This document shows, piece after piece, positions 7,879-58,463 of a DNA stretch of 64,000 nt. The DNA is taken from assembly GCA_964371155.1 (NCBI GenBank), contig CAYJLI010000005.1, positions 1,675 through 65,674 of the forward strand, in the 5' to 3' direction. Position numbers and translations under genes: made by a program. The notes beneath the pieces were generated by a model that did no database searches, was not told the origin of the DNA, and saw only the letters and a list, made by a program, of their open reading frames with translations. Position 1 is the stretch's first letter, and every line of letters begins with the position of its first letter. The DNA is from an uncultured Oscillospiraceae bacterium. GTDB taxonomy: Bacteria > Bacillota > Clostridia > Oscillospirales > Ruminococcaceae.

Positions 7879-7890
7879 GTGTCTTATGCT

Positions 7891-8012
7891 ATTCATTTTT
7901 CAGGCTCCGCTTACTTATTTATGGGGCTTTGCCCCATACCCCACGATTTTTTGAAAAAAATCGAGTAAAACTTTATTTTTCGCTATTTTGCGTACCCCAC
8001 GGCTATCCCCTC
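7891..8012 (-). repeat. Mosaic intergenic repeat, copy 1 (B-end fragment + module A + tail), reverse orientation relative to the 51-kb and 57-kb copies
   Basis: 7921-7971 atggggctttgccccataccccacgattttttgaaaaaaatcgagtaaaac is the reverse complement of the 51-nt module at 51113-51163 and 57650-57700, and is co-oriented with 25504-25554. Flanks (ggctccgcttacttattt; ttcgctattttgcg) resemble module B pieces. It fills the gap between two convergent genes. Confidence 0.85.
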
Positions 8013-20091: not shown

Positions 20092-20172
20092 ATAGGGGCT
20101 CACCCTATGTGACTGTCTGAAATCATTGGAAAAATCCAAGACTTCGGAGAGTTGCATAGGGTGAGCCCCTAT
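20092..20172. terminator. 18-bp perfect inverted repeat with a 45-nt spacer between convergent genes
   Basis: ataggggctcaccctatg (20092-20109) and catagggtgagcccctat (20155-20172), with A/T-rich flanks on both sides. Confidence 0.55.
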
Positions 20173-20188
20173 TTATAAATTATTCTTA

Positions 20189-21493
20189 TTACACGCAGCT
20201 GCTGAGCATGATTGCAAGAATTTCTTTGTCGGTCTGCTTCATACCCTGACTTGCAAGACGACCAACACTCGCTATGGTATTTTCTACACCTTTTTTAACA
20301 ATACCATCTTCGCCGTAGAACTGCTGACCCTGTGTATACATTTCATATCCTAAAATACCACAGTCAACTGCAACAGCTATTTTACCAGCACATGACGCCT
20401 TTGCCCCATCGCATATAACGCCTGAATCAATTGCAAGTGTATTTACAAGTGCATGGGAAAGAACTTCAAGGTCCGCACCTTTTAGATAGGCTATTGCACA
20501 ACCTGCCGCCGCTCCTGCACTTACAGCACCACAGAATGCCGAAAGCCTGCCTATCGGTGTTTTTTGGTGTATTGAGAGTAAATTGGAGAACACAAGTGCT
20601 CTGTATATTTCCTCTTCGCTATGTCCCATATGCCTGCCATAAGTGATTACAGGCACCGAAACAGTGATGCCTTGGTTTCCACTGCCCGAGTTTATCACAA
20701 CGGGAAGCTCACATCCATTCATTCTCGCATCGCTTCCAGCCGCCGCCATAGCACGGGCGTAGAGCTTCGCCGTGGTCTCTTTACTGTCCTCTGGATTGCT
20801 TCTCGTTGCTAAAAGCACGCTACCTATATTTGCTCCGTATTCCCCATCAAGACCTTCTTGAGAGATTGCCATATTGTAGGATATTTGGCGGTCTAAAAGT
20901 TCCTTTACATCGCTTATATCAACCACATTGGCAAATTCATATATTTTTTCAACCGTAATAAAACTGCGGTCGGTAAGATTCTCGCTCTCTACTGTATCAA
21001 GCTGTTTTGTGCTTAAGGCTTCGCCATTTTTCTCTATGAGCACAATATTTGTATGATTTCCCACCACACGCACTTTAGCGTAATTTTCCCCTTTGTAAAC
21101 ACTAACAGCCAAATCAAGCACATAGGGAGAGCTTGCAATTTCAATTTGGATTTCGTTATTATTTAAAAAGTCCTTTATCTCTTGCTGTTTTTCCTTTGGC
21201 ACAAGCGATATAACCTCTAATTTTTTAGAGGCATCTCCTGCCACCACACCCACAGCAACAGAAGCTGGAATTCCCCTTAACTGTTCTGTATTTGGCACAA
21301 ACACGCTCTTTACATTTTTTATAATATTCCCACTCGCTTCTACTAAAACTCTATCGGGCATCTCGCCTAAGGTTTCCCTCGCAACCGCAGAAACATAGGC
21401 TATGGCAATTGGTTCAGTACAGCCCATTGCAGGCAAAAGCTCTTCTTTTAGCACCTCAACAAATTTTTGGTATTCGTTTCTTGTAATTGGCAT
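20189..21493 (-). CDS. UPF0597 / YhaM(CyuA)-family L-cysteine desulfidase-like protein
   Basis: 434 aa. The N-terminal GCTEPIAIAY motif and the Cys-rich C-terminal half (VICDGAKASCAGK) are typical of the serine-dehydratase-alpha-like YhaM family. Confidence 0.75.
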   Translation of the reverse strand: MPITRNEYQKFVEVLKEELLPAMGCTEPIAIAYVSAVARETLGEMPDRVLVEASGNIIKNVKSVFVPNTEQLRGIPASVAVGVVAGDASKKLEVISLVPKEKQQEIKDFLNNNEIQIEIASSPYVLDLAVSVYKGENYAKVRVVGNHTNIVLIEKNGEALSTKQLDTVESENLTDRSFITVEKIYEFANVVDISDVKELLDRQISYNMAISQEGLDGEYGANIGSVLLATRSNPEDSKETTAKLYARAMAAAGSDARMNGCELPVVINSGSGNQGITVSVPVITYGRHMGHSEEEIYRALVFSNLLSIHQKTPIGRLSAFCGAVSAGAAAGCAIAYLKGADLEVLSHALVNTLAIDSGVICDGAKASCAGKIAVAVDCGILGYEMYTQGQQFYGEDGIVKKGVENTIASVGRLASQGMKQTDKEILAIMLSSCV

Positions 21494-21558
21494 AGATAAA
21501 CTCTCCTTATATTTTATTTGTCAGTGCAGCATCGAATTTAATAACCAGTCTAAATTTA

Positions 21559-21587
21559 ATTATATATTAATAGCTCCACTTTTTCAA
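21559..21587 (-). promoter_or_regulatory. Putative sigma-A promoter of the cysteine-desulfidase-like gene
   Basis: Minus strand TTGAAA (21587-21582), 17-nt spacer, TATAAT (21564-21559). Confidence 0.5.
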
Positions 21588-21796
21588 GGTATTATTGGAA
21601 TTTGTATTTCGGTGATATACTCATCCGCTACATCTGTAATTGTTTGGTGTACAAGTGCTGTTTCAATACTGTTCCCACAGATTTTGTATTTGCTACATTT
21701 TTTTATTGTAAAATACATGTTCATATACCATCGTATTACTCACTTATTTGCACATTTTGTTTCTTGCCCCAGAAATTTTTTTGATAGCCTAACAGC

Positions 21797-21873
21797 GTGT
21801 TCAAAAAAGCAAGAGCTTTTTCGAACACACTTAAATGCCAATACCATCGCTTTCAGCGGTGGTATTGGCATTT
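21797..21873 (-). terminator. Two tandem hairpins downstream of the M24 peptidase gene
   Basis: Hairpin 1: aaatgccaatacca (21833-21846) pairs with tggtattggcattt (21860-21873). Hairpin 2: gtgttcaaaaaagc (21797-21810) pairs with gctttttcgaacac (21815-21828) with one mismatch. U-tracts are weak on the minus strand. Confidence 0.5.
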
Positions 21874-21891
21874 AATTTTATCTAATCATTA

Positions 21892-23750: not shown

Positions 23751-25106
23751 CTAAGATGCCTTTTGAGCAAATCTATTATACTTTTTATATGTTCCTCTTT
23801 TGTAGCGAAAATATGCGGCTATCGAGCAAACAATCCATGTAAATGGCATACAATACCAAACAGCATTAATCCCTATAAAAGGTATCGGTGCAAGCAGATA
23901 TGCAAAAGCAACACGAATGATAATTTGCGAAGTGGTGATAGCCATTGCACCCTTAACATCGCCATAGCCCCTAAAAAAGCTGATATATGCATTTAGCACT
24001 GCCGACATTACAAAAGGCACTGCAAGCACTCTCAGGCAATCCGAGCCAAGGCGTATTATTTCGGGCTGGGTAGCATCTACAAATATACCCATCAACCATT
24101 CAGCAAAGACAAATATTAAAAATGATGATATGGCACAAAAAATTACCGAAACTTTCATCACTGCAAAAAGCCCTTCGCTCGCCCTTTCTTCCTGCTTTGC
24201 ACCTATATTTTGCCCTACGAAATTTGCAAGCGCAAGGCTTAGGCTCATAATCGGAAGCACTATGAAATTATCTATTCTGTAAGCGGCTGAATAAGCACTT
24301 ATAGCGTAGTCCCCAAAGCCATTTACCACCCCTTGTAAAAACATCATTCCAAGCGAATTTACAATCTGCTGTATCGAGGAGGGTACACCGTATTTTATTA
24401 TTAAACTAAATAGCGGCTTATCAAAGACCATGTTTTTAGGTGTAATCTTTAGTATGTCGTATTTTCTAAATGTGTATATCACACAGCAAATAGCCGCTAC
24501 CGCTTGGGCGATGAATGTGGCTACTGCTACTGCCACCACCCCATTTTCAAACATCATAACAAAAGCTACATCGAGTATAATGTTTAGCACGCTCGACATT
24601 ATTAAAAAGTAAAGTGGTGTTTTAGAATCGCCTATTGCTCTGAGCACCCCTGCATAATACTGATAAAGGCACTGAAAGGGTATACTTGCGGAGAAAATTT
24701 GCAGATATATTTTAGCGAGTGGGAGAATATTATCGGGTGTGTTTAGCATTTTCAGGATGAACTCCGCTCCAAAAACACCACAGACCGTCATCAAAAATGC
24801 CAGAGCAAATACCACGATGAAGGAGGTGGATAGTCCCTTGTGGAAGTTCTTATCATCCTTAGCACCGAAATTTTGCGAAATAATTACCGATGATCCCATG
24901 ATAAACCCTGCTAAAATCGCTGTGAGGAAAAATGATATGGGGGTAGAAGTGCCTGCCGCCGCCTGAGCTTGATAGCTCACCATTTTTCCAAGCACCGCCG
25001 TATCTACAAGCTGATACATCTGCTGGAACATATTGCCTATCAGAAGTGGAATTGTAAATATCCAAATCTGCTTTACTATACTGCCTTTTGTAAAATCTAT
25101 ATTCAT
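23751..25106 (-). CDS. MATE-family efflux transporter
   Basis: 451 aa with 12 predicted TM helices and the typical N-terminus IWIFTIPLLIGNMFQQMYQLVDTAVLG. Confidence 0.9.
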   Translation of the reverse strand: MNIDFTKGSIVKQIWIFTIPLLIGNMFQQMYQLVDTAVLGKMVSYQAQAAAGTSTPISFFLTAILAGFIMGSSVIISQNFGAKDDKNFHKGLSTSFIVVFALAFLMTVCGVFGAEFILKMLNTPDNILPLAKIYLQIFSASIPFQCLYQYYAGVLRAIGDSKTPLYFLIMSSVLNIILDVAFVMMFENGVVAVAVATFIAQAVAAICCVIYTFRKYDILKITPKNMVFDKPLFSLIIKYGVPSSIQQIVNSLGMMFLQGVVNGFGDYAISAYSAAYRIDNFIVLPIMSLSLALANFVGQNIGAKQEERASEGLFAVMKVSVIFCAISSFLIFVFAEWLMGIFVDATQPEIIRLGSDCLRVLAVPFVMSAVLNAYISFFRGYGDVKGAMAITTSQIIIRVAFAYLLAPIPFIGINAVWYCMPFTWIVCSIAAYFRYKRGTYKKYNRFAQKAS

Positions 25107-25156
25107 TTATTACCTGCTTTTCATTGTTTTGGTTGTGCGTACCCGACGAGCATGAA

Positions 25157-25584
25157 GTAGGGGCGAACCTATGTGTTCGCCCGAAAATCACCTGCAATTT
25201 TAAATAATGCAAAACCTCTGAACAGGCGATTACAGGTCGCCCCTACAACTATCTTTTTTGATAGTGTGTGCCATACTGGCGGTCATGGCAAGCCATGCCC
25301 CTACAATGGGATTTCGATTTATTTTAGATTATGCGTAACCCTCGGGCATAGCTCGCCATGCCCCTACAATTTAAAATCTGTTTCTCCTAATGCGAAACTC
25401 ATTAACTTTTCACTATTCATTTTTAATTTTTCACTCAAAAAAATCTCCGCTCTTTTGCTTCGCAAAATTTGCTACATTTTTTCTTAGCTTCGCTTTTTCT
25501 TTCATGGGGCTTTGCCCCACACCCCATAATTTTTTGAAAAAAATTAAGTAAAACTTTAGTTTTGGCTCCACTGTGGGATGGGGA
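25157..25584 (-). repeat. Mosaic intergenic repeat, copy 2 (largest): D, D-inverted, C, C, H, B, A, tail
   Basis: Module coordinates: D 25158-25184 and inverted D 25223-25249; C 25279-25311 and 25339-25372; H 25405-25436; B 25442-25493; A 25504-25554. All recur at other sites in the window (see findings). There is no credible ORF. Confidence 0.9.
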
Positions 25585-27504
25585 TTATTTTAAATAGCTC
25601 TCAAACCATTTCACGATTTCATACATCCTTTTTATCCTCTGTATCGGTCTGCCATTTCGTGATAAATCATGGTTTTCACCGTCTATTAGGCACACCCTCG
25701 AGTCTACACCATGGAACTTAAGGGCGGTAAACATCTGCATTGCCTCGATATAATGGCAACGATAATCCTCCCTCGCATGGATGAATAATGTAGGTGTCTT
25801 TACATTGTTTGCATATTTAAGTGGGGACTGCGCCCAAAGTCTTTCGGTGTTTTCCCATGGGGTGGAATCCATCTGCTCCGCCACGAAATTATACCCATTA
25901 TCGGCAGCTCCAAAGGCGGTGAACATATTGCTAATACCCCTTTGCACACATGCACATTTAAATCTATCGGTATGGCCGATGATCCAGTTTGTCATTATTC
26001 CACCATATGAGCCACCTGCCACGCCGAGATTTTCCCTATCAATCTGTGGGTATCTTTCGCATGCAGTGTCGATAGCTTTCATTAGGTCGGAGTAATCTGG
26101 CTCGCCATAATGCCCCATCAGCTTTGCAAACTCACTGCCCTGTCCATCGCTTCCCCTCGGGTTGCCATAAACCACAAAAAATCCCCTGCTTGCAAGCAGC
26201 TGCATTTCATGGAAGAATACATCTGTGTAAAGTGTTTTCGCTCCGCCGTGGATGTAGAGTATTGCAGGATATTTTTTCTCTTCCTCAAATCCAAGAGGTT
26301 TTACCACCACATATTGAACATCATAGCCGTTATTTTTAAAATACATAAGCTCGGGAGTGCTCACATCCTCAGCTTTTAATGTGTTTTCATTTATCTCGGT
26401 TATTTTTATTTCTTCGCCGTTTTCTATGCAGTAAATCTCTGTGAGTGCAGTGCCCCTCACGCCGTTAAAATAAATTTTGCCATCGGGGGTGATATCATAC
26501 CCCTCCACGCATCCATTTGGTTTTGTTAGCACTGTGATATTGCCATTTAAGTCGATCTTTTTAATCTGCGAGCTCACACCCTCGGTGGAAATAAAGTAAA
26601 ACTCAGAGCCAAACACCTTGTATTCACGGTTTGAGCCATATTTAAAGTCGTAGAGGACTGTGTTTGTAAAGCTTGTGTCCGCTTTGCTAATTTTGCTACA
26701 TTTGCCCTCTTCCACTATGTAAAGACTGCTGTTGTCGGTCATTAGGCTCTCACTCATCTTCGCCCCTACAAAAGCACATTTGCCCTCGATAATATCCACA
26801 TTCAGTATGCGGTAAAGCCCCTCTTTTACTACTTCTTCGGTGGTTTTTGTGGCGATGTCATAGCGATAAATTCCAGGGGTAGTCCTTTTATCCTCAAAGG
26901 TAACTGCTGAGTAAATCACCGATTTTTCATCAGCGGCAAAGCTTAGCACCTCGCTGTAATCACCTGTAATTTTAACGGCATTTTCTCCATCTTTTATGAA
27001 AAGGGAGTTTCTCTTTCTATTTGTAAAGCCCCTGCCATTGCTCCAAAAAGGGATTTCTTCGAGTATGTGAAACTCTCCGTCGGACTCTTTTAAGAAGCTG
27101 AGCTCCTCGGGATATTCTTCACTCTCGCAGTTCGATTCGGCAGTAAATAGTATTTCACCATTTTTTAAAAGTGCAAATTTATTCGCCTCATATTCTGTGG
27201 AAAAACATTCGCTTTTCTCCCCCGTTAAAGGATTAAGTCTATAAAAAAGCGTTTTATCCTCACATTTTTCTTTTAGCAGCATATCACCATTTTCGTCCCA
27301 TATAAATGAGGTATTATCAGCGCCTGCAATCCTTTTAGTGGTATTATCCGCTAAATTCATCAGATATGCTTCGCTTTTATAGCAGTTTTCAGTGAGGGAG
27401 GGTAATGTCACATTAAATGCAAGTGTTTCACCTTTTTTATCCACTGATAAGCTGTTTATCGATTTGTAATTTAAAAAATCTTTGATATTTATCATTTTAT
27501 TCAC
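25585..27504 (-). CDS. S9-family serine peptidase (N-terminal beta-propeller + prolyl oligopeptidase/acylaminoacyl-peptidase-type catalytic domain)
   Basis: 639 aa with nucleophile motif GGSYGG, downstream D and H (GENHDL). The start may be ATG 27495 rather than GTG 27504. Confidence 0.88.
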   Translation of the reverse strand: MNKMINIKDFLNYKSINSLSVDKKGETLAFNVTLPSLTENCYKSEAYLMNLADNTTKRIAGADNTSFIWDENGDMLLKEKCEDKTLFYRLNPLTGEKSECFSTEYEANKFALLKNGEILFTAESNCESEEYPEELSFLKESDGEFHILEEIPFWSNGRGFTNRKRNSLFIKDGENAVKITGDYSEVLSFAADEKSVIYSAVTFEDKRTTPGIYRYDIATKTTEEVVKEGLYRILNVDIIEGKCAFVGAKMSESLMTDNSSLYIVEEGKCSKISKADTSFTNTVLYDFKYGSNREYKVFGSEFYFISTEGVSSQIKKIDLNGNITVLTKPNGCVEGYDITPDGKIYFNGVRGTALTEIYCIENGEEIKITEINENTLKAEDVSTPELMYFKNNGYDVQYVVVKPLGFEEEKKYPAILYIHGGAKTLYTDVFFHEMQLLASRGFFVVYGNPRGSDGQGSEFAKLMGHYGEPDYSDLMKAIDTACERYPQIDRENLGVAGGSYGGIMTNWIIGHTDRFKCACVQRGISNMFTAFGAADNGYNFVAEQMDSTPWENTERLWAQSPLKYANNVKTPTLFIHAREDYRCHYIEAMQMFTALKFHGVDSRVCLIDGENHDLSRNGRPIQRIKRMYEIVKWFESYLK

Positions 27505-40048: not shown

Positions 40049-41233
40049 ATGAGCCATTTTTCCCATGAAAATGTAAATTTTGATGTCTTAAAAAAGAAAG
40101 CTTTTAATTACAGATGGGCGGAGATACCGGAGGGTGTTATTCCTCTTACCGCCGCTGATTCAGACTTCCCTGCAGCTCCGGAAATCATAGAGGATATTAT
40201 CAATTATGTTAAGGATGGTTACCTTTCTTATACGCCTAAGCTCGGCTTGCAAGAGTTTAGAGAAAGCATTGCAGAAAGCATTAACCGCAGAAAAGATGAA
40301 CATATTAACCCTGAATTTGTGCTTCCGATAGACAGCGCCGCAAGAGGAATGTATATTATTGCACAGGCTATGCTTGCTGAAGGCGACGAAATGATTATCT
40401 TCGACCCCGTTGATTATCTCTTTAAGCAGTCGGCACTATCCGCTAAGGCTACCCCCGTATACTTCCCATCGGTGCTCGACGAAGAGGGCTATATTGACTT
40501 ATCAGGACTTGAAGCGCTCATCACTCCAAAAACAAAGATGATAGGTCTTTGCAATCCTCACAACCCACTCGGCACACTCTACCGCAAAGAGGATTTACTA
40601 CATATATTAAATCTTGCCGAAAAATATAACCTCTATATAATGAACGACGAAATATGGTCGGATATTGTATACCCAGAGCGTGATTTCATCTCGATACTTT
40701 CGGTAAATCCCGAGCTTAATAAGAGAGTGCTCTCGGTGTACGGATTTTCAAAATGCTACGGTGTGGCTGGGCTTAGAATTGGCTGTATTTACGCACACGA
40801 CGCAGAAATTTTTGATAAACTCGTAGCCGCTTCCGATGTAATGACAACCGCAGGCGGTATCGCCTCCATTTCACAAATAGCGGGCATATCCTGCCTAAAT
40901 AAAGCCGATTACATGGTTAAAAACTATGTGGAGCATCTCACAAAAAACCGTGATATGGTTTGCGAGAGAATAAATGCAATGCCGATGCTTTCTTGCAGAA
41001 GACCTGAGGCTACATTTGTGGTGTTTATAGATGTGAGAGAAACAGGGCTTTCCTCCACCGAGTTTACCGACTTCATGATGGAAAAGGCAAAACTTGCGCT
41101 TGTACCAGGCAGTGAGCAGTTCTTTGGCAAGGGCGCCGAAGGCTTTGTAAGGCTTTGCTTTGCTACGAGCAGGGAAATTTTATCCGAGGGACTCGATAGA
41201 CTTGAAAAAGGCATTATGATGCTTAAGAAATAA
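40049..41233 (+). CDS. PLP-dependent C-S lyase / aminotransferase class I-II (PatB/MalY-like)
   Basis: 394 aa. The N-terminus FNYRWAEIPEGVIPLTAADSDFPAAPEI and the SKCYGVAGLRIG PLP-lysine region are typical of MalY/PatB cystathionine beta-lyases. Confidence 0.82.
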   Translation: MSHFSHENVNFDVLKKKAFNYRWAEIPEGVIPLTAADSDFPAAPEIIEDIINYVKDGYLSYTPKLGLQEFRESIAESINRRKDEHINPEFVLPIDSAARGMYIIAQAMLAEGDEMIIFDPVDYLFKQSALSAKATPVYFPSVLDEEGYIDLSGLEALITPKTKMIGLCNPHNPLGTLYRKEDLLHILNLAEKYNLYIMNDEIWSDIVYPERDFISILSVNPELNKRVLSVYGFSKCYGVAGLRIGCIYAHDAEIFDKLVAASDVMTTAGGIASISQIAGISCLNKADYMVKNYVEHLTKNRDMVCERINAMPMLSCRRPEATFVVFIDVRETGLSSTEFTDFMMEKAKLALVPGSEQFFGKGAEGFVRLCFATSREILSEGLDRLEKGIMMLKK

Positions 41234-41239
41234 TAATTT

Positions 41240-41270
41240 TATATCCCCCCGCCTTTGGCGGGGGGATATA
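41240..41270 (+). terminator. Perfect 14-bp GC-core hairpin after the C-S lyase gene
   Basis: tatatccccccgcc (41240-41253), loop ttt, ggcggggggatata (41257-41270). Confidence 0.7.
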
Positions 41271-41323
41271 TAACTTAAATGCTAATACTTAAAGACCATG
41301 GACTTAGGATTGGGGGATCATTT

Positions 41324-42571: not shown

Positions 42572-42593
42572 ATTAATTTATAATAAAACAAAT

Positions 42594-42634
42594 AATGATA
42601 TATCCCCCCGCCATAAGCGGGGGGATATATCATT
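42594..42634. terminator. Perfect 18-bp hairpin shared by the convergent antiporter and trpS genes
   Basis: aatgatatatccccccgc (42594-42611), loop cataa, gcggggggatatatcatt (42617-42634). The core atatccccccgc is identical to the hairpin at 41240-41270. Confidence 0.75.
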
Positions 42635-42653
42635 AAAGTGTATTGGGATTATT

Positions 42654-43757: not shown

Positions 43758-43803
43758 TGGTTTCTCATAGGGTCACGGGTTGCCATGCCCCTACAAGAAA
43801 CCA
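43758..43803 (+). repeat. Mosaic repeat fragment (module C) enclosed by an 8-bp inverted repeat
   Basis: cacgggttgccatgcccctacaag (43774-43797) matches module C at 25339-25372 and, reverse-complemented, 51255-51283. Flanked by tggtttct (43758-43765) and agaaacca (43796-43803). Confidence 0.7.
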
Positions 43804-47342: not shown

Positions 47343-47349
47343 GGCAGTG

Positions 47350-47498
47350 GATAAAAGATGGGGAGCTGAGTTTAACTTGGCTGAGAGTCACCGTGAATAT
47401 CGGTGTAACCCTTAGACCTGATCCGGGTAATGCCGGCGTAGGAAGAATATTTAGTGTATCTTTCTTTGCTGTTGTGTATTGCCTACACAACTTTTTTT
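47350..47498 (+). promoter_or_regulatory. TPP (THI-box) riboswitch with an intrinsic-terminator expression platform
   Basis: Aptamer hallmarks: ggggagc, ctgagag, accctt and gacctgatccgggtaatgccggcgtaggaa (47360-47445). Terminator: gttgtgta (47471-47478) pairs with tacacaac (47484-47491), followed by TTTTTTT (47492-47498). Confidence 0.9.
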
Positions 47499-51008: not shown

Positions 51009-51046
51009 ATGAGTATCCTCCTTTTTTTATGATTATAACATAGAAT

Positions 51047-51283
51047 ATAGTGAAAAGTGAATAGTGAAAAATGAAAAGTTATGGGGTTTCGCCGCCTGCG
51101 AAACAAAATAAAGTTTTACTCGATTTTTTACAAAAAATCGTGGGGCGTGGGGCAAAGCCCCATAAATGGAAAGGCGAAGCCGAGAAAAGAATATAGCGAT
51201 TTTTGCAAAGCAAAAGAGCGGAGATTATATAGAATTTTAAATGCTGTGGGAAATCCCATTGTAGGGACATGGGTTGCCCGAGG
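51047..51283 (+). repeat. Mosaic intergenic repeat, copy 3: H, small hairpin, A, B, C
   Basis: H 51047-51080 (atagtgaaaagtgaatagtgaaaaatgaaaagtt); hairpin gtttcgc/gcgaaac 51087-51105; A 51113-51163; B 51173-51232; C (reverse complement of the 25-kb C) 51255-51283. Confidence 0.9.
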
Positions 51284-55982: not shown

Positions 55983-56061
55983 CCCTGCATGGCAAGGCGA
56001 GGGCAATAATTATAATCATTTTTAAATTTCGCAAAATCTTCTGACATGGCAACCCATGTCC
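55983..56061. repeat. Two mosaic-repeat fragments (module C-like) in the SEDS-glmU spacer
   Basis: ccctgcatggcaaggcgagggc (55983-56004) shares catggcaag with 25285-25293. gacatggcaacccatgtcc (56043-56061) is the reverse complement of ggacatgggttgcc in 51265-51278. Confidence 0.55.
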
Positions 56062-56189
56062 AAAATAATACTTAAGTCTATTAAAAAGCAGTTTTTCTCC
56101 CCACCCAAAGATGATGAGAAAAACATGGCACAAACATGGCAGTTTTATAGTTATGTTTGTGCTTTTTAGAGAAAGGAATGGTCATATTT

Positions 56190-57587: not shown

Positions 57588-57629
57588 TTTTTTCTGCGAG
57601 GAGTGTAAATCATCGGAGTGGGATTATTT

Positions 57630-57764
57630 AGTGAAAAGTGAAAAATGAAGTTTTACTCGATTTTTTGAAAAAAATCGTGGGGTATGGGGTGAAACCCCAT
57701 AAATAGAATGGCGAAGCCAAAAAACAATGTAGCAATTTTTGCGAAGCAAAAGAACGGAGATTAT
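57630..57764 (+). repeat. Mosaic intergenic repeat, copy 4: H, A, B; abuts a start codon
   Basis: H 57630-57649; A 57650-57700; B 57710-57762. Module B ends ..gaacGGAGattat immediately before ATG 57765. Confidence 0.9.
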
Positions 57765-58463
57765 ATGGAAAAAAATTTAAAAAAGCAATTAGATAATGAT
57801 TTATGGATTATTGTAATATTATCATTACTTTCACTGGGAGTTTATATTGTTTTTAACTCGCAAATTATGAGCATCGCAAAAGATAATACAAATCCTATTT
57901 TATTGCGAGTATTGTTGTTTGCGGCATTGCAGTTTGGAGTAGCAGGATTTGGTATAACTACAGTTGCAATAATACGAAAAGAAAACTTCTGCTCTTATGG
58001 GCTAAAAAAAGATAATGCTCTTATATCAATTTTACTCACAGCCCTTTGCTATATTCCATATTTAATATTTTCATTTACAACTGGAGCAATAACAAGTTAT
58101 CTACCTTTTCAGCAAGTAATAACAACAAATGAAGTACTCGGGGCCGCTTTTCCTATAAATGTTTTAGGTATTTTGATTACAATATTTTCGTGGGGTTTTT
58201 TTGAAGGTTTTAACTATGTTGTTATAAGTGATAAAATAAATAAATTGTATCCAAGCAGAAATCATTGGGTTAATTGGGGGGCTATAAGTTGTAGTATTCT
58301 GTGTATTTTAATTCACGGAATGGTGGGTGTCACCTCCGATGCACTGATTGAAATGTTTACAATTATATTCTTTATTTATGGAATGCTAATTGTTAAAGAG
58401 CGAACTGGTAATGCTTGGGGAAGTGTTTTTGTGTTTATCTTTTTGTGGAATGCATTCAAGTAG
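57765..58463 (+). CDS. Hypothetical polytopic membrane protein (about 6-7 TM helices), very AT-rich
   Basis: Start at ATG 57765 (MEKNLKKQLD) with GGAG 5 nt upstream. The 57708 start of the ORF track would read through repeat module B. No family recognised with confidence. Confidence 0.65.
   Translation: MEKNLKKQLDNDLWIIVILSLLSLGVYIVFNSQIMSIAKDNTNPILLRVLLFAALQFGVAGFGITTVAIIRKENFCSYGLKKDNALISILLTALCYIPYLIFSFTTGAITSYLPFQQVITTNEVLGAAFPINVLGILITIFSWGFFEGFNYVVISDKINKLYPSRNHWVNWGAISCSILCILIHGMVGVTSDALIEMFTIIFFIYGMLIVKERTGNAWGSVFVFIFLWNAFK

Follow-up and report, generated by a model that had tools for sequence, protein, structure and literature searches.

We analysed a 64-kb stretch of DNA from an uncultured Oscillospiraceae bacterium (the window, by which we mean the whole stretch) and focused on the repeats in the intergenic block that separates an S9 peptidase gene from a MATE transporter gene. 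A preliminary description made from the sequence had read this block as the largest copy of one family of mosaic repeats, built entirely of short hairpin modules. Our analysis finds the modules but divides them between two unrelated hairpin repeat families: short palindromes tagged by GTAG, which fall into the recognisable GTAG superfamily of repetitive extragenic palindromes (REPs), and a composite element made of the modules A, B and H. Throughout, the window was compared with its closest relative, the metagenome-assembled genome (MAG) CAYJIJ01 (GCA_964370185.1; the sister genome), in which the flanking genes are about 95% identical and whose orthologous loci were reached through protein cluster members. 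The block and its surroundings contain the following features.

23751-25106, minus strand: MATE transporter gene, strong Pfam match
25107-25584: intergenic gap of 478 nt, separating the MATE start codon from the S9 peptidase stop
25157-25246: inverted doublet D1/D2, 90 nt, GTAG at both outer ends, similar to a REP doublet forming a hairpin (REPIN)
25157-25182, plus strand: REP unit D1, GTAGGGGCGAACCTATGTGTTCGCCC; GTAG and an 8-bp stem GGGCGAAC/GTTCGCCC with loop CTATGT
25225-25246, minus strand: REP unit D2, GTAGGGGCGACCTGTAATCGCC; inverted partner of D1 with a 5-bp stem, -4.7 kcal/mol
25281-25304, minus strand: REP unit C1, GTAGGGGCATGGCTTGCCATGACC; identical in the sister genome
25344-25367, minus strand: REP unit C2, GTAGGGGCATGGCGAGCTATGCCC; replaced by unrelated sequence at this locus of the sister genome
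25381-25567, minus strand: composite element of about 180 nt, in the order core (A), B, H, degenerate hairpin 0
25381-25401, minus strand: degenerate hairpin 0, GAGTTTCGCATTAGGAGAAAC, equivalent to GGAGTTTCGCC..GGCGAAAC in other copies
about 25405-25436, minus strand: module H, a degenerate run of the heptad (A/G)TGAA(A/T)A
about 25437-25493, minus strand: module B, hairpin TTTTGC-GAA-GCAAAA (25453-25467) and a second GCGAAGC motif
about 25488-25567, minus strand: module A, the conserved core, with AAAGTTTTACT, hairpin 1 (25527-25546), TGGGGT and hairpin 2 (25505-25519)
25585-27504, minus strand: S9 peptidase gene, strong Pfam match

None of the open reading frames (ORFs) within or across the gap (104, 117, 53 and 46 aa) has a Pfam match, and the block differs from the orthologous gap of the sister genome by insertions or deletions of 1, 2 and 3 nt. 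We therefore treated the gap as non-coding, in agreement with the earlier proposal that the block holds no gene; no conserved ORF spans it in the sister genome either. A search for tRNA and tmRNA genes found none, and a consensus scan of the gene strand of the block found no promoter-like or terminator-like site. Taken as a whole the block is highly structured (z -3.7) and, on the coding strand, immediately precedes the MATE start. About 50 nt beside the MATE start and the spacers between the units are unique sequence, so that the gap does not consist of modules alone.

The module coordinates of the preliminary description hold to within 1-3 nt. Its modules also recur at four of the five places it had named in the window (7.9, 43.8, 51.1 and 57.6 kb); the fifth, at 56.0 kb (56042-56067), is only 69% similar, has no GTAG, is kept as such in the sister genome and was not counted. 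At 478 nt the block is indeed the largest cluster in the window (the one at 51 kb has 390 nt), but the 51-kb cluster of the sister genome is larger. The other copies in the window are these.

7887-7987, minus strand: second composite copy, which stops after the core (7905-7984); 84.2 bits with covariance model R1
43771-43794, minus strand: solitary C-type REP, GTAGGGGCATGGCAACCCGTGACC
51045-51242, plus strand: third composite copy, in the order H, hairpin 0, A (core 51100-51179), B; 79.1 bits
51260-51282, plus strand: degenerate REP, TGTAGGGACATGGGTTGCCCGAG, adjoining the 51-kb composite copy
57626-57770, plus strand: fourth composite copy, in the order short H, A (core 57637-57716), B; 73.9 bits; its end GGAGATTATATG adjoins the next ORF

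GTAG repeats and a RAYT-like gene

The four REP units of the block and the solitary unit at 43771-43794 all begin with GTAG followed by a stem, and in single-stranded DNA (ssDNA) folds their GTAG stays unpaired. REPs are imperfect palindromes of 20-40 nt that fold into a stem-loop; here the stems are 5-8 bp long and G+C-rich, the loops measure 4-7 nt and the folding energies range from -4.3 to -9.0 kcal/mol. Among single units only D1 (-9.0 kcal/mol, z -4.7) folds far beyond its shuffles; the D1/D2 doublet folds into a single long hairpin (-16.6 kcal/mol, z -4.0). D2, C1 and C2 form three direct repeats on the minus strand, their CCCCTACAA ends 58-63 nt apart. A BLAST search of the block against the window together with a repeat finder places further C units at 43.78 and 51.26 kb.

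The motif TGTAGGGRC occurs six times in the window where 0.43 occurrences are expected. One of the six, TGTAGGGGC at 26762 inside the peptidase gene, forms no hairpin and was rejected as a chance match. A generic counter of GTAG followed by any hairpin did not rise above shuffles, and we dropped it as a statistic.

Dozens of REP copies lie within the loci of the sister genome. They include eight C-type doublets, seven of which have a start-to-start spacing of 86-87 nt. D-type units follow the consensus GTAG-GGGCGnAC-CTRTGT-GTnCGCCC and occur with compensated stems in CAYJIJ01, in the MAG CAYIYZ01, in the Avoscillospira group (20 copies in 100 kb) and in Chakrabartyella. The Chakrabartyella copies, from the Lachnospiraceae isolate Chakrabartyella piscis (NZ_CP092441, 2.184-2.192 Mb, locus L077), keep both the CTRTGT loop and the compensated stems. 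The D type is thus shared across families and occurs in Lachnospiraceae and several Oscillospiraceae, an unusually wide range for a REP type, whereas the REP families described so far are largely lineage-specific.

These properties place the C and D units closest to the REP/BIME/REPIN system of Enterobacteria and Pseudomonas, in which a REP-associated tyrosine transposase (RAYT) takes part (Di Nocera et al., 2013, PMC3733652; Bertels and Rainey, 2011, PMC3116915). GTAG REPs are defined by an unpaired GTAG, stems of 5-13 bp, short loops and an association with RAYTs, and they occur as singletons, inverted dimers and clusters (Di Nocera et al., 2013, PMC3733652). Likewise, the C and D units have an unpaired GTAG beside a 5-8-bp stem with a short loop; they occur as singletons, as inverted doublets with GTAG outward and as clusters; and they are extragenic, mostly downstream of genes, with G.T pairs in their stems. 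The host is different: the 2013 catalogue contains GTAG REPs only from Proteobacteria, Cyanobacteria, Chloroflexi and the PVC group and lists none in Firmicutes (PMC3733652), whereas the host here is a MAG of the Clostridia (Oscillospiraceae). In 2017, RAYTs of Group 1 were recorded from Clostridia.

The 64-kb window itself encodes no transposase, as the preliminary description had stated for the surroundings of the modules. Its suggestion to look elsewhere for an enzyme of the RAYT or IS200 kind proved fruitful. We compared all ORFs of the window and of the loci taken from other genomes (747 kb together) with IS200 and E. coli RayT sequences and obtained one match, which was verified independently. 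It is a gene for a protein of 174 aa in the sister genome (L056 4314-4838, on CAYJIJ010000070.1). The protein matches Pfam Y1_Tnp (E 2.3e-7), and its best NCBIfam match is NF047646, the REP-associated tyrosine transposase (REP_Tyr_transpos; 1.6e-18, 67 bits), compared with only 25.8 bits for the IS200 model. Its only match in the PDB is 4ER8 (TnpA_REP). In either alignment the HUH motif (HIH) is visible and the Tyr motif is aligned.

The gene stands beside cognate REPs: at least six C-type units lie in the 500 nt upstream, one of them about 70 nt from the start codon. Within L056 3800-4838 the REPs that precede the gene form three inverted doublets. The protein has 3,792 homologues, and JGI names some of them REP element-mobilizing transposase RayT. 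Another NCBI contig encodes an 86%-identical protein (P0123), and a 59%-identical homologue in another MAG has TTGTAGAGGCGGATATTGTTCGCCTCTACA (GTAGAGGCG..CGCCTCTAC) about 55 nt upstream.

Taken together, the best-supported explanation of the GTAG units is that they are REPs which a RAYT would serve. The association of the two was seen only in relatives, and a RAYT probably acts on the REPs described here. By analogy with the E. coli system, such an enzyme would bind and cleave REPs as ssDNA; the enzymology that serves as the model, together with PDB 4ER8, is reportedly that of Ton-Hoang and Messing in 2012.

One further hairpin of the window has a loop-like motif, CTATGTG, in common with the D-type REPs. 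It is a perfect 81-nt hairpin at 20092-20172 (-31.3 kcal/mol, z -11), whose arms of 23 nt are ATAGGGGCTCACCCTATGTGACT and the complement, and it is located between the convergent genes for a DUF454 protein and a serine dehydratase. It is REPIN-like, but its tag is ATAG and not GTAG.

The composite element and its conserved core

Covariance model R1 recognises exactly four core copies in the window, at 74-84 bits, with 80.1 bits (E 1.4e-15) for the copy in the block. By BLAST, modules A and B of the block match elsewhere in the window at 83-90% identity over 42-118 nt, and the longest match per locus has an E value between 7e-15 and 7.5e-21: 118 nt at 86% (E 7.5e-21) at 51.1 kb, 60 nt at 90% at 7.9 kb and 52 nt at 90% at 57.6 kb. 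Module B itself is 90% identical to 57711-57762 and lies within the 86% match to 51109-51226. The four copies differ in module order and completeness. At several loci of the window's lineage module B is followed by ...GGAAATCCCATTGTAGGGGC, which joins a REP to the composite element. The -35/-10-like sequence TTGCAA-N17-TATATA of module B is not conserved in the 25-kb copy, and no U-run stands behind hairpin 2. A role as promoter or terminator was rejected.

At 57755-57768 the end of module B (GGAGATTATATG) provides a Shine-Dalgarno-like GGAG and the ATG of the ORF 57766-58463, which has no Pfam match; a longer, mechanically called ORF from 57708 reads through the repeat. The repeats can therefore donate translation signals and inflate ORF calls.

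To follow the core beyond the window, the pattern TTTTACTNNATTTTTTNNAAAAAATNNTGGGG was scanned over the GTDB species representatives. Among the matches listed, this fixed pattern occurs in at least 96 stretches of DNA from 24 assemblies, and the covariance model finds 175 core matches in 683 kb taken from those assemblies, a distribution far beyond a local duplication. Almost all hosts among the matches listed are Oscillospiraceae or other Clostridia. They span many genera and at least two orders and include Anaerotruncus, Avoscillospira, Acutalibacteraceae, Heritagella, Merdivicinus and Gallacutalibacter as well as the Chakrabartyella piscis isolate. Three matches outside the Clostridia (L002, L055 and L080) are on contigs of 1-3 kb from study ERP123703, in bins assigned to Muribaculaceae, Desulfovibrionaceae and Treponemataceae. 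The copies in L055 and L080 are close matches to those of the Oscillospiraceae MAG CAYIYZ01, and L002 bears the form of the window's lineage, so that these bins probably contain mis-binned, repeat-rich fragments.

What is attached to the core depends on the lineage. In the window's lineage it is followed by B, by two to seven AGTGAAA units (H; the maximum of seven tandem units is in L070) and by hairpin 0. Avoscillospira-like and related genomes have one to three CGCA-loop hairpins and further modules in this place. A MAG from the Hadza gut, with at least 39 core-like copies in 182 kb, has no modules after the core; here a covarying terminator-like hairpin with a T-run precedes the core, which often abuts the stop codon of a convergent gene. 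Several Avoscillospira-like loci (L005, L006, L022, L030, L074, L084 and L090) carry a conserved extra module of about 100 nt (GGGCCTTTGGCCCTCTCACCGCAACAATGCGAAGCATGGATTGAG...) before the core, which makes their composite element much longer than that of the window.

The core itself measures 65 nt and consists of AAAGTTTTACT, an A/T-rich hairpin 1 with the apex CTTTTTCAAAAG, the motif YGGGGT, and hairpin 2, GGGGC-AAA-GCCCC. Both free pairs of hairpin 1 form in every one of 100 copies that match the pattern, which makes 200 of 200 cells (CG 89, UA 8, AU 2 and UG 1 for one; GC 68, AU 31 and GU 1 for the other), and hairpin 2 is 97% paired. Copies outside the search pattern behave alike: in the best 48 of them about 98% of the stem cells of hairpin 1 are Watson-Crick pairs, and hairpin 1 can be formed by wholly different, compensated stems (TCAACTTTTT/AAAAAGTTG, GTCAAGCCTTTT/AAAGGCTTG and CTCCGGCTTTT/AAAAGCCGG), while the apex CTTTTTCAAAAG and two unpaired stretches, AAAGTTT and YGGGGT, are constant. 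Such compensated variation of the stems rules out a double-stranded operator. A likeness to CodY or LexA operators was rejected on the same ground.

The mismatches are also informative on the strand. The ratio of G.T to A.C is 24:4 for hairpin 2 with its extension, and about 13:1 within the pattern set. The copies have no significant bias towards the strand that carries most genes, which also served as the leading/lagging proxy (50:38, p 0.24). An excess of G.T without a gene-strand bias argues that one of the two strands is selected in its folded form, be it RNA or ssDNA. In the block the folded strand of the core is the minus strand, that is, the gene strand, and therefore the block is probably co-transcribed with the peptidase gene. 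The near-invariance of a core that folds strand-specifically across genera implies a conserved protein partner.

Searches of catalogued families leave the core without a name, consistent with the remark in the preliminary description that the sequences belong to no recognised family; for the REP part this remark does not hold. At the Rfam gathering score only a thiamine pyrophosphate (TPP) riboswitch passes in the whole window and none of the repeats, and the repeats in 18 loci from other genomes match no family either. Opening the search of the block to E values up to 10 gave nothing meaningful and nothing with E < 0.005; the best match, a plant microRNA model, aligns to the long hairpin of the REP doublet. 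The core is absent from the viral contigs of IMG/VR and from the plasmids of PLSDB, and a string search of the literature with core sequences returned chance Drosophila matches only. The core family is thus uncatalogued in Rfam 15, IMG/VR, PLSDB and the searched literature.

Origin and turnover of the block

In the sister genome the module order of the block is kept, C2 is replaced by about 45 nt of unrelated sequence and hairpin 1 of the core is degenerate. C2 is thus polymorphic. The other orthologous loci differ as well. At 7.9 kb the sister genome has a full A-B-H-hairpin 0 element where the window copy ends after the core; at 43.8 kb it has an inverted doublet in place of the single REP; and at 51.2 kb a D-type REP takes the place of the window's degenerate C-type REP, with about 480 nt of additional REPs. 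Differences at four orthologous loci between sisters that are about 95% identical indicate a rapid turnover of the repeats. They are replacements and size changes, which do not by themselves prove transposition.

The placement of the core in genomes resembles that of known parasitic repeats. Convergent gene pairs flank 24 of 82 core-bearing intergenic regions against 67 of 465 (odds ratio 2.46, p 0.002); divergent pairs tend to be avoided, but not significantly (odds ratio 0.53). BOX, RUP, SPRITE and insertion sequence (IS) elements are similarly enriched between convergent genes (Croucher et al., 2011, PMC3049150). The genes beside core copies are unrelated to each other and include no recurrent transposase family. 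We rejected the idea that the core is part of a larger mobile element, because the adjacent or convergent ORFs are unrelated and share no transposase family.

Among known repeats, BOX (boxA-(boxB)n-boxC; PMC3049150) is the closest to the composite element in its logic. Both are modular mosaics with a conserved end module and a variable number of internal hairpin modules, both are strongly folded, lack coding capacity of their own and show an enrichment between convergent genes, both can provide adjacent ORFs with start or stop signals, and neither has a known mobilising enzyme. The likeness is one of logic only: no sequence relation is apparent, and a different consensus is expected. Unlike BOX, the composite element has a core that spans many genera and at least two orders of Clostridia with lineage-specific modules attached, and no complementary ends of the boxA/boxC kind were seen in it.

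MITEs, miniature transposable elements with inverted repeats, and palindrome-associated transposable elements (PATEs) are likewise short, non-coding, structured, multi-copy and assembly-breaking. About 100 aligned core copies with their flanks have no terminal inverted repeat, and no flank is duplicated at the sharp boundaries of the Hadza-gut copies; the core is therefore not a classical MITE. As for PATEs derived from IS200/IS605, the 747 kb contain no IS200-like ORF, the flanks of the core are not conserved and its neighbours are unrelated. In the absence of a matching autonomous IS200/IS605 element and of a conserved flanking tetra- or pentanucleotide, PATE status is unsupported.

We therefore favour, with a probability of roughly two in three, the reading that the block is a BIME/BOX-like cluster of two independent, non-coding hairpin repeat families between the co-directional S9 peptidase and MATE genes. 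The notion of BOX/BIME-like mosaics of small palindromic units put forward in the preliminary description thus stands, with the GTAG doublet and the direct repeats as the BIME-like part and A/B/H as BOX-like in logic. The GTAG REPs would act as ssDNA hairpins, recognised through their GTAG foot by a single-copy HUH/Y1 RAYT encoded elsewhere. By cutting and joining REP single strands this enzyme would let REPs spread and be maintained, and local duplication, replacement and recombination would make REP clusters larger or smaller. The core element is modular, its structure under strand-specific selection and lineage-specific modules attached in variable number and order. It would disperse without terminal inverted repeats or target duplications and be tolerated mainly downstream of genes. 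Within this explanation we lean slightly towards the core being a non-autonomous, BOX-like selfish repeat, and it may be mobile. The block may in addition attenuate or stabilise transcripts that run from the peptidase gene into the MATE gene.

Several observations weigh against this reading. No clean pair of filled and empty insertion sites was found for either family, and the polymorphisms between the sister genomes (replacements, truncations and changes in array size) could be produced by recombination alone. The core has no transposase, terminal inverted repeat or target duplication of its own among the aligned copies. The RAYT-like gene belongs to the sister genome and not to the 64-kb window. 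Unlike typical RAYTs, its product scores below the curated cutoff of NF047646 (67 bits against 80) and its REPs lie on the 5' side only, the next gene following directly downstream with no REP there. A third homologue has no visible flanking REP, at a locus that an N-run obscures in part. Finally, the near-invariance of the unpaired core sequence across families and the conserved synteny of a core copy upstream of glmM in three species (L006, L065 and L069) would be explained at least as well by a host function.

The last two points lead to the strongest alternative, in which the A/B/H core is a functional, multi-copy structured RNA (an element of 3' untranslated or intergenic mRNA, or a family of small RNAs) bound by a conserved host protein. 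Selection would then keep the core for its effect on the stability, processing or read-through of neighbouring transcripts, here those of the peptidase and MATE genes. The near-perfect covariation, with wobbles on one strand despite an almost even split over gene strands, would be expected of such an RNA, as would the near-invariance of the unpaired AAAGTTTTAC and YGGGGT in genomes of 40% to about 55% G+C, the glmM copy, and the position of the element between stop codon and terminator-like hairpin in one lineage. We nevertheless regard a functional RNA as rather unlikely. The core occurs in both orientations relative to its flanking genes (22 sense, 13 antisense, 20 convergent and 5 divergent), neither a promoter nor a terminator accompanies it consistently, many of its copies are cut short or degenerate, the order and number of modules vary, the neighbouring genes are unrelated, Rfam gives no family match, and an enrichment downstream of genes is typical of tolerated parasites.

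Alternatively, one Y1/HUH enzyme could move both families through ssDNA hairpins, with the core as a PATE of the IS200/IS605 type or as a second RAYT substrate. The ends of the core are rich in hairpins and have neither terminal inverted repeats nor target duplications, and the two families are often physically joined in the window's lineage. GNA/GAA-type triloops closed by C-G and GCGAAGC motifs are also present, and such sequences favour very stable DNA mini-hairpins. A shared enzyme is improbable all the same: the core has no GTAG tag and no bias in the leading/lagging proxy, the core-rich Hadza MAG has no GTAG REP among its abundant repeats, and the single Y1 gene in the 683 kb plus the window lies more than 1.3 kb from any core copy. 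Least probable is a role of the block as a dedicated cis-regulatory leader (a riboswitch or attenuator) for the MATE gene, or its origin as a decayed coding gene: its position and strong fold could suggest a leader, but this reading is already contradicted by the recurrence of each structured part, in either orientation, in other genomes and at loci unrelated to this one, by the lack of Rfam and Pfam matches described above, and by the exchange of a whole unit in the sister genome without effect on its neighbours.

Returning to the cluster of two repeat families, we note that it belongs to a known type of bacterial junk or regulatory DNA and is not a new kind of system, and that its REP part is a host-range extension of a known one. 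To our knowledge, nearly all work on REP/RAYT systems has concerned Proteobacteria and Cyanobacteria. The uncultured gut Oscillospiraceae have the full set of GTAG REPs, REPIN-like doublets, BIME-like clusters and a RAYT-like gene beside REPs, which extends the known host range and offers a Gram-positive model of REPIN-RAYT co-evolution. For the core, which is present in many copies per genome and conserved in sequence across many genera of Oscillospiraceae and into Lachnospiraceae, we consider it quite possible, though less likely than not, that an undiscovered mobilisation system dependent on hairpins, one with no terminal inverted repeats, target duplications or adjacent transposase, uses it as its recognition module, or else that it is an RNA or ssDNA motif used by the host and widespread in gut Clostridia. 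The element also has practical consequences. At least six contigs begin inside the core element, which therefore breaks MAG assemblies; it gives rise to spurious ORF calls; small contigs with copies of it appear to be mis-binned to other phyla; and the element can supply ribosome-binding sites and stop codons to adjacent genes.

Some further observations lie outside the two families. Two G+C-rich hairpins at 41232-41281 and 42591-42640, 82% identical (ATATCCCCCCGCC...GGCGGGGGGATAT), follow two consecutive plus-strand genes. They make up another small repeat family, the third, with the look of a terminator used more than once. To the left of the M24 peptidase gene (L097 7276-9356 against window 20189-21875) the window and the sister genome cease to be syntenic: a sodium:solute symporter and an M20 peptidase are encoded there in the sister genome, and a serine dehydratase in the window. 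Two skipping-rope RNAs at an Avoscillospira locus (L085 5110-5189 and 6527-6605) are unrelated to the repeats. The same is true of the TPP riboswitch of the window (47349-47462), an ordinary one upstream of a ThiT-like transporter gene.

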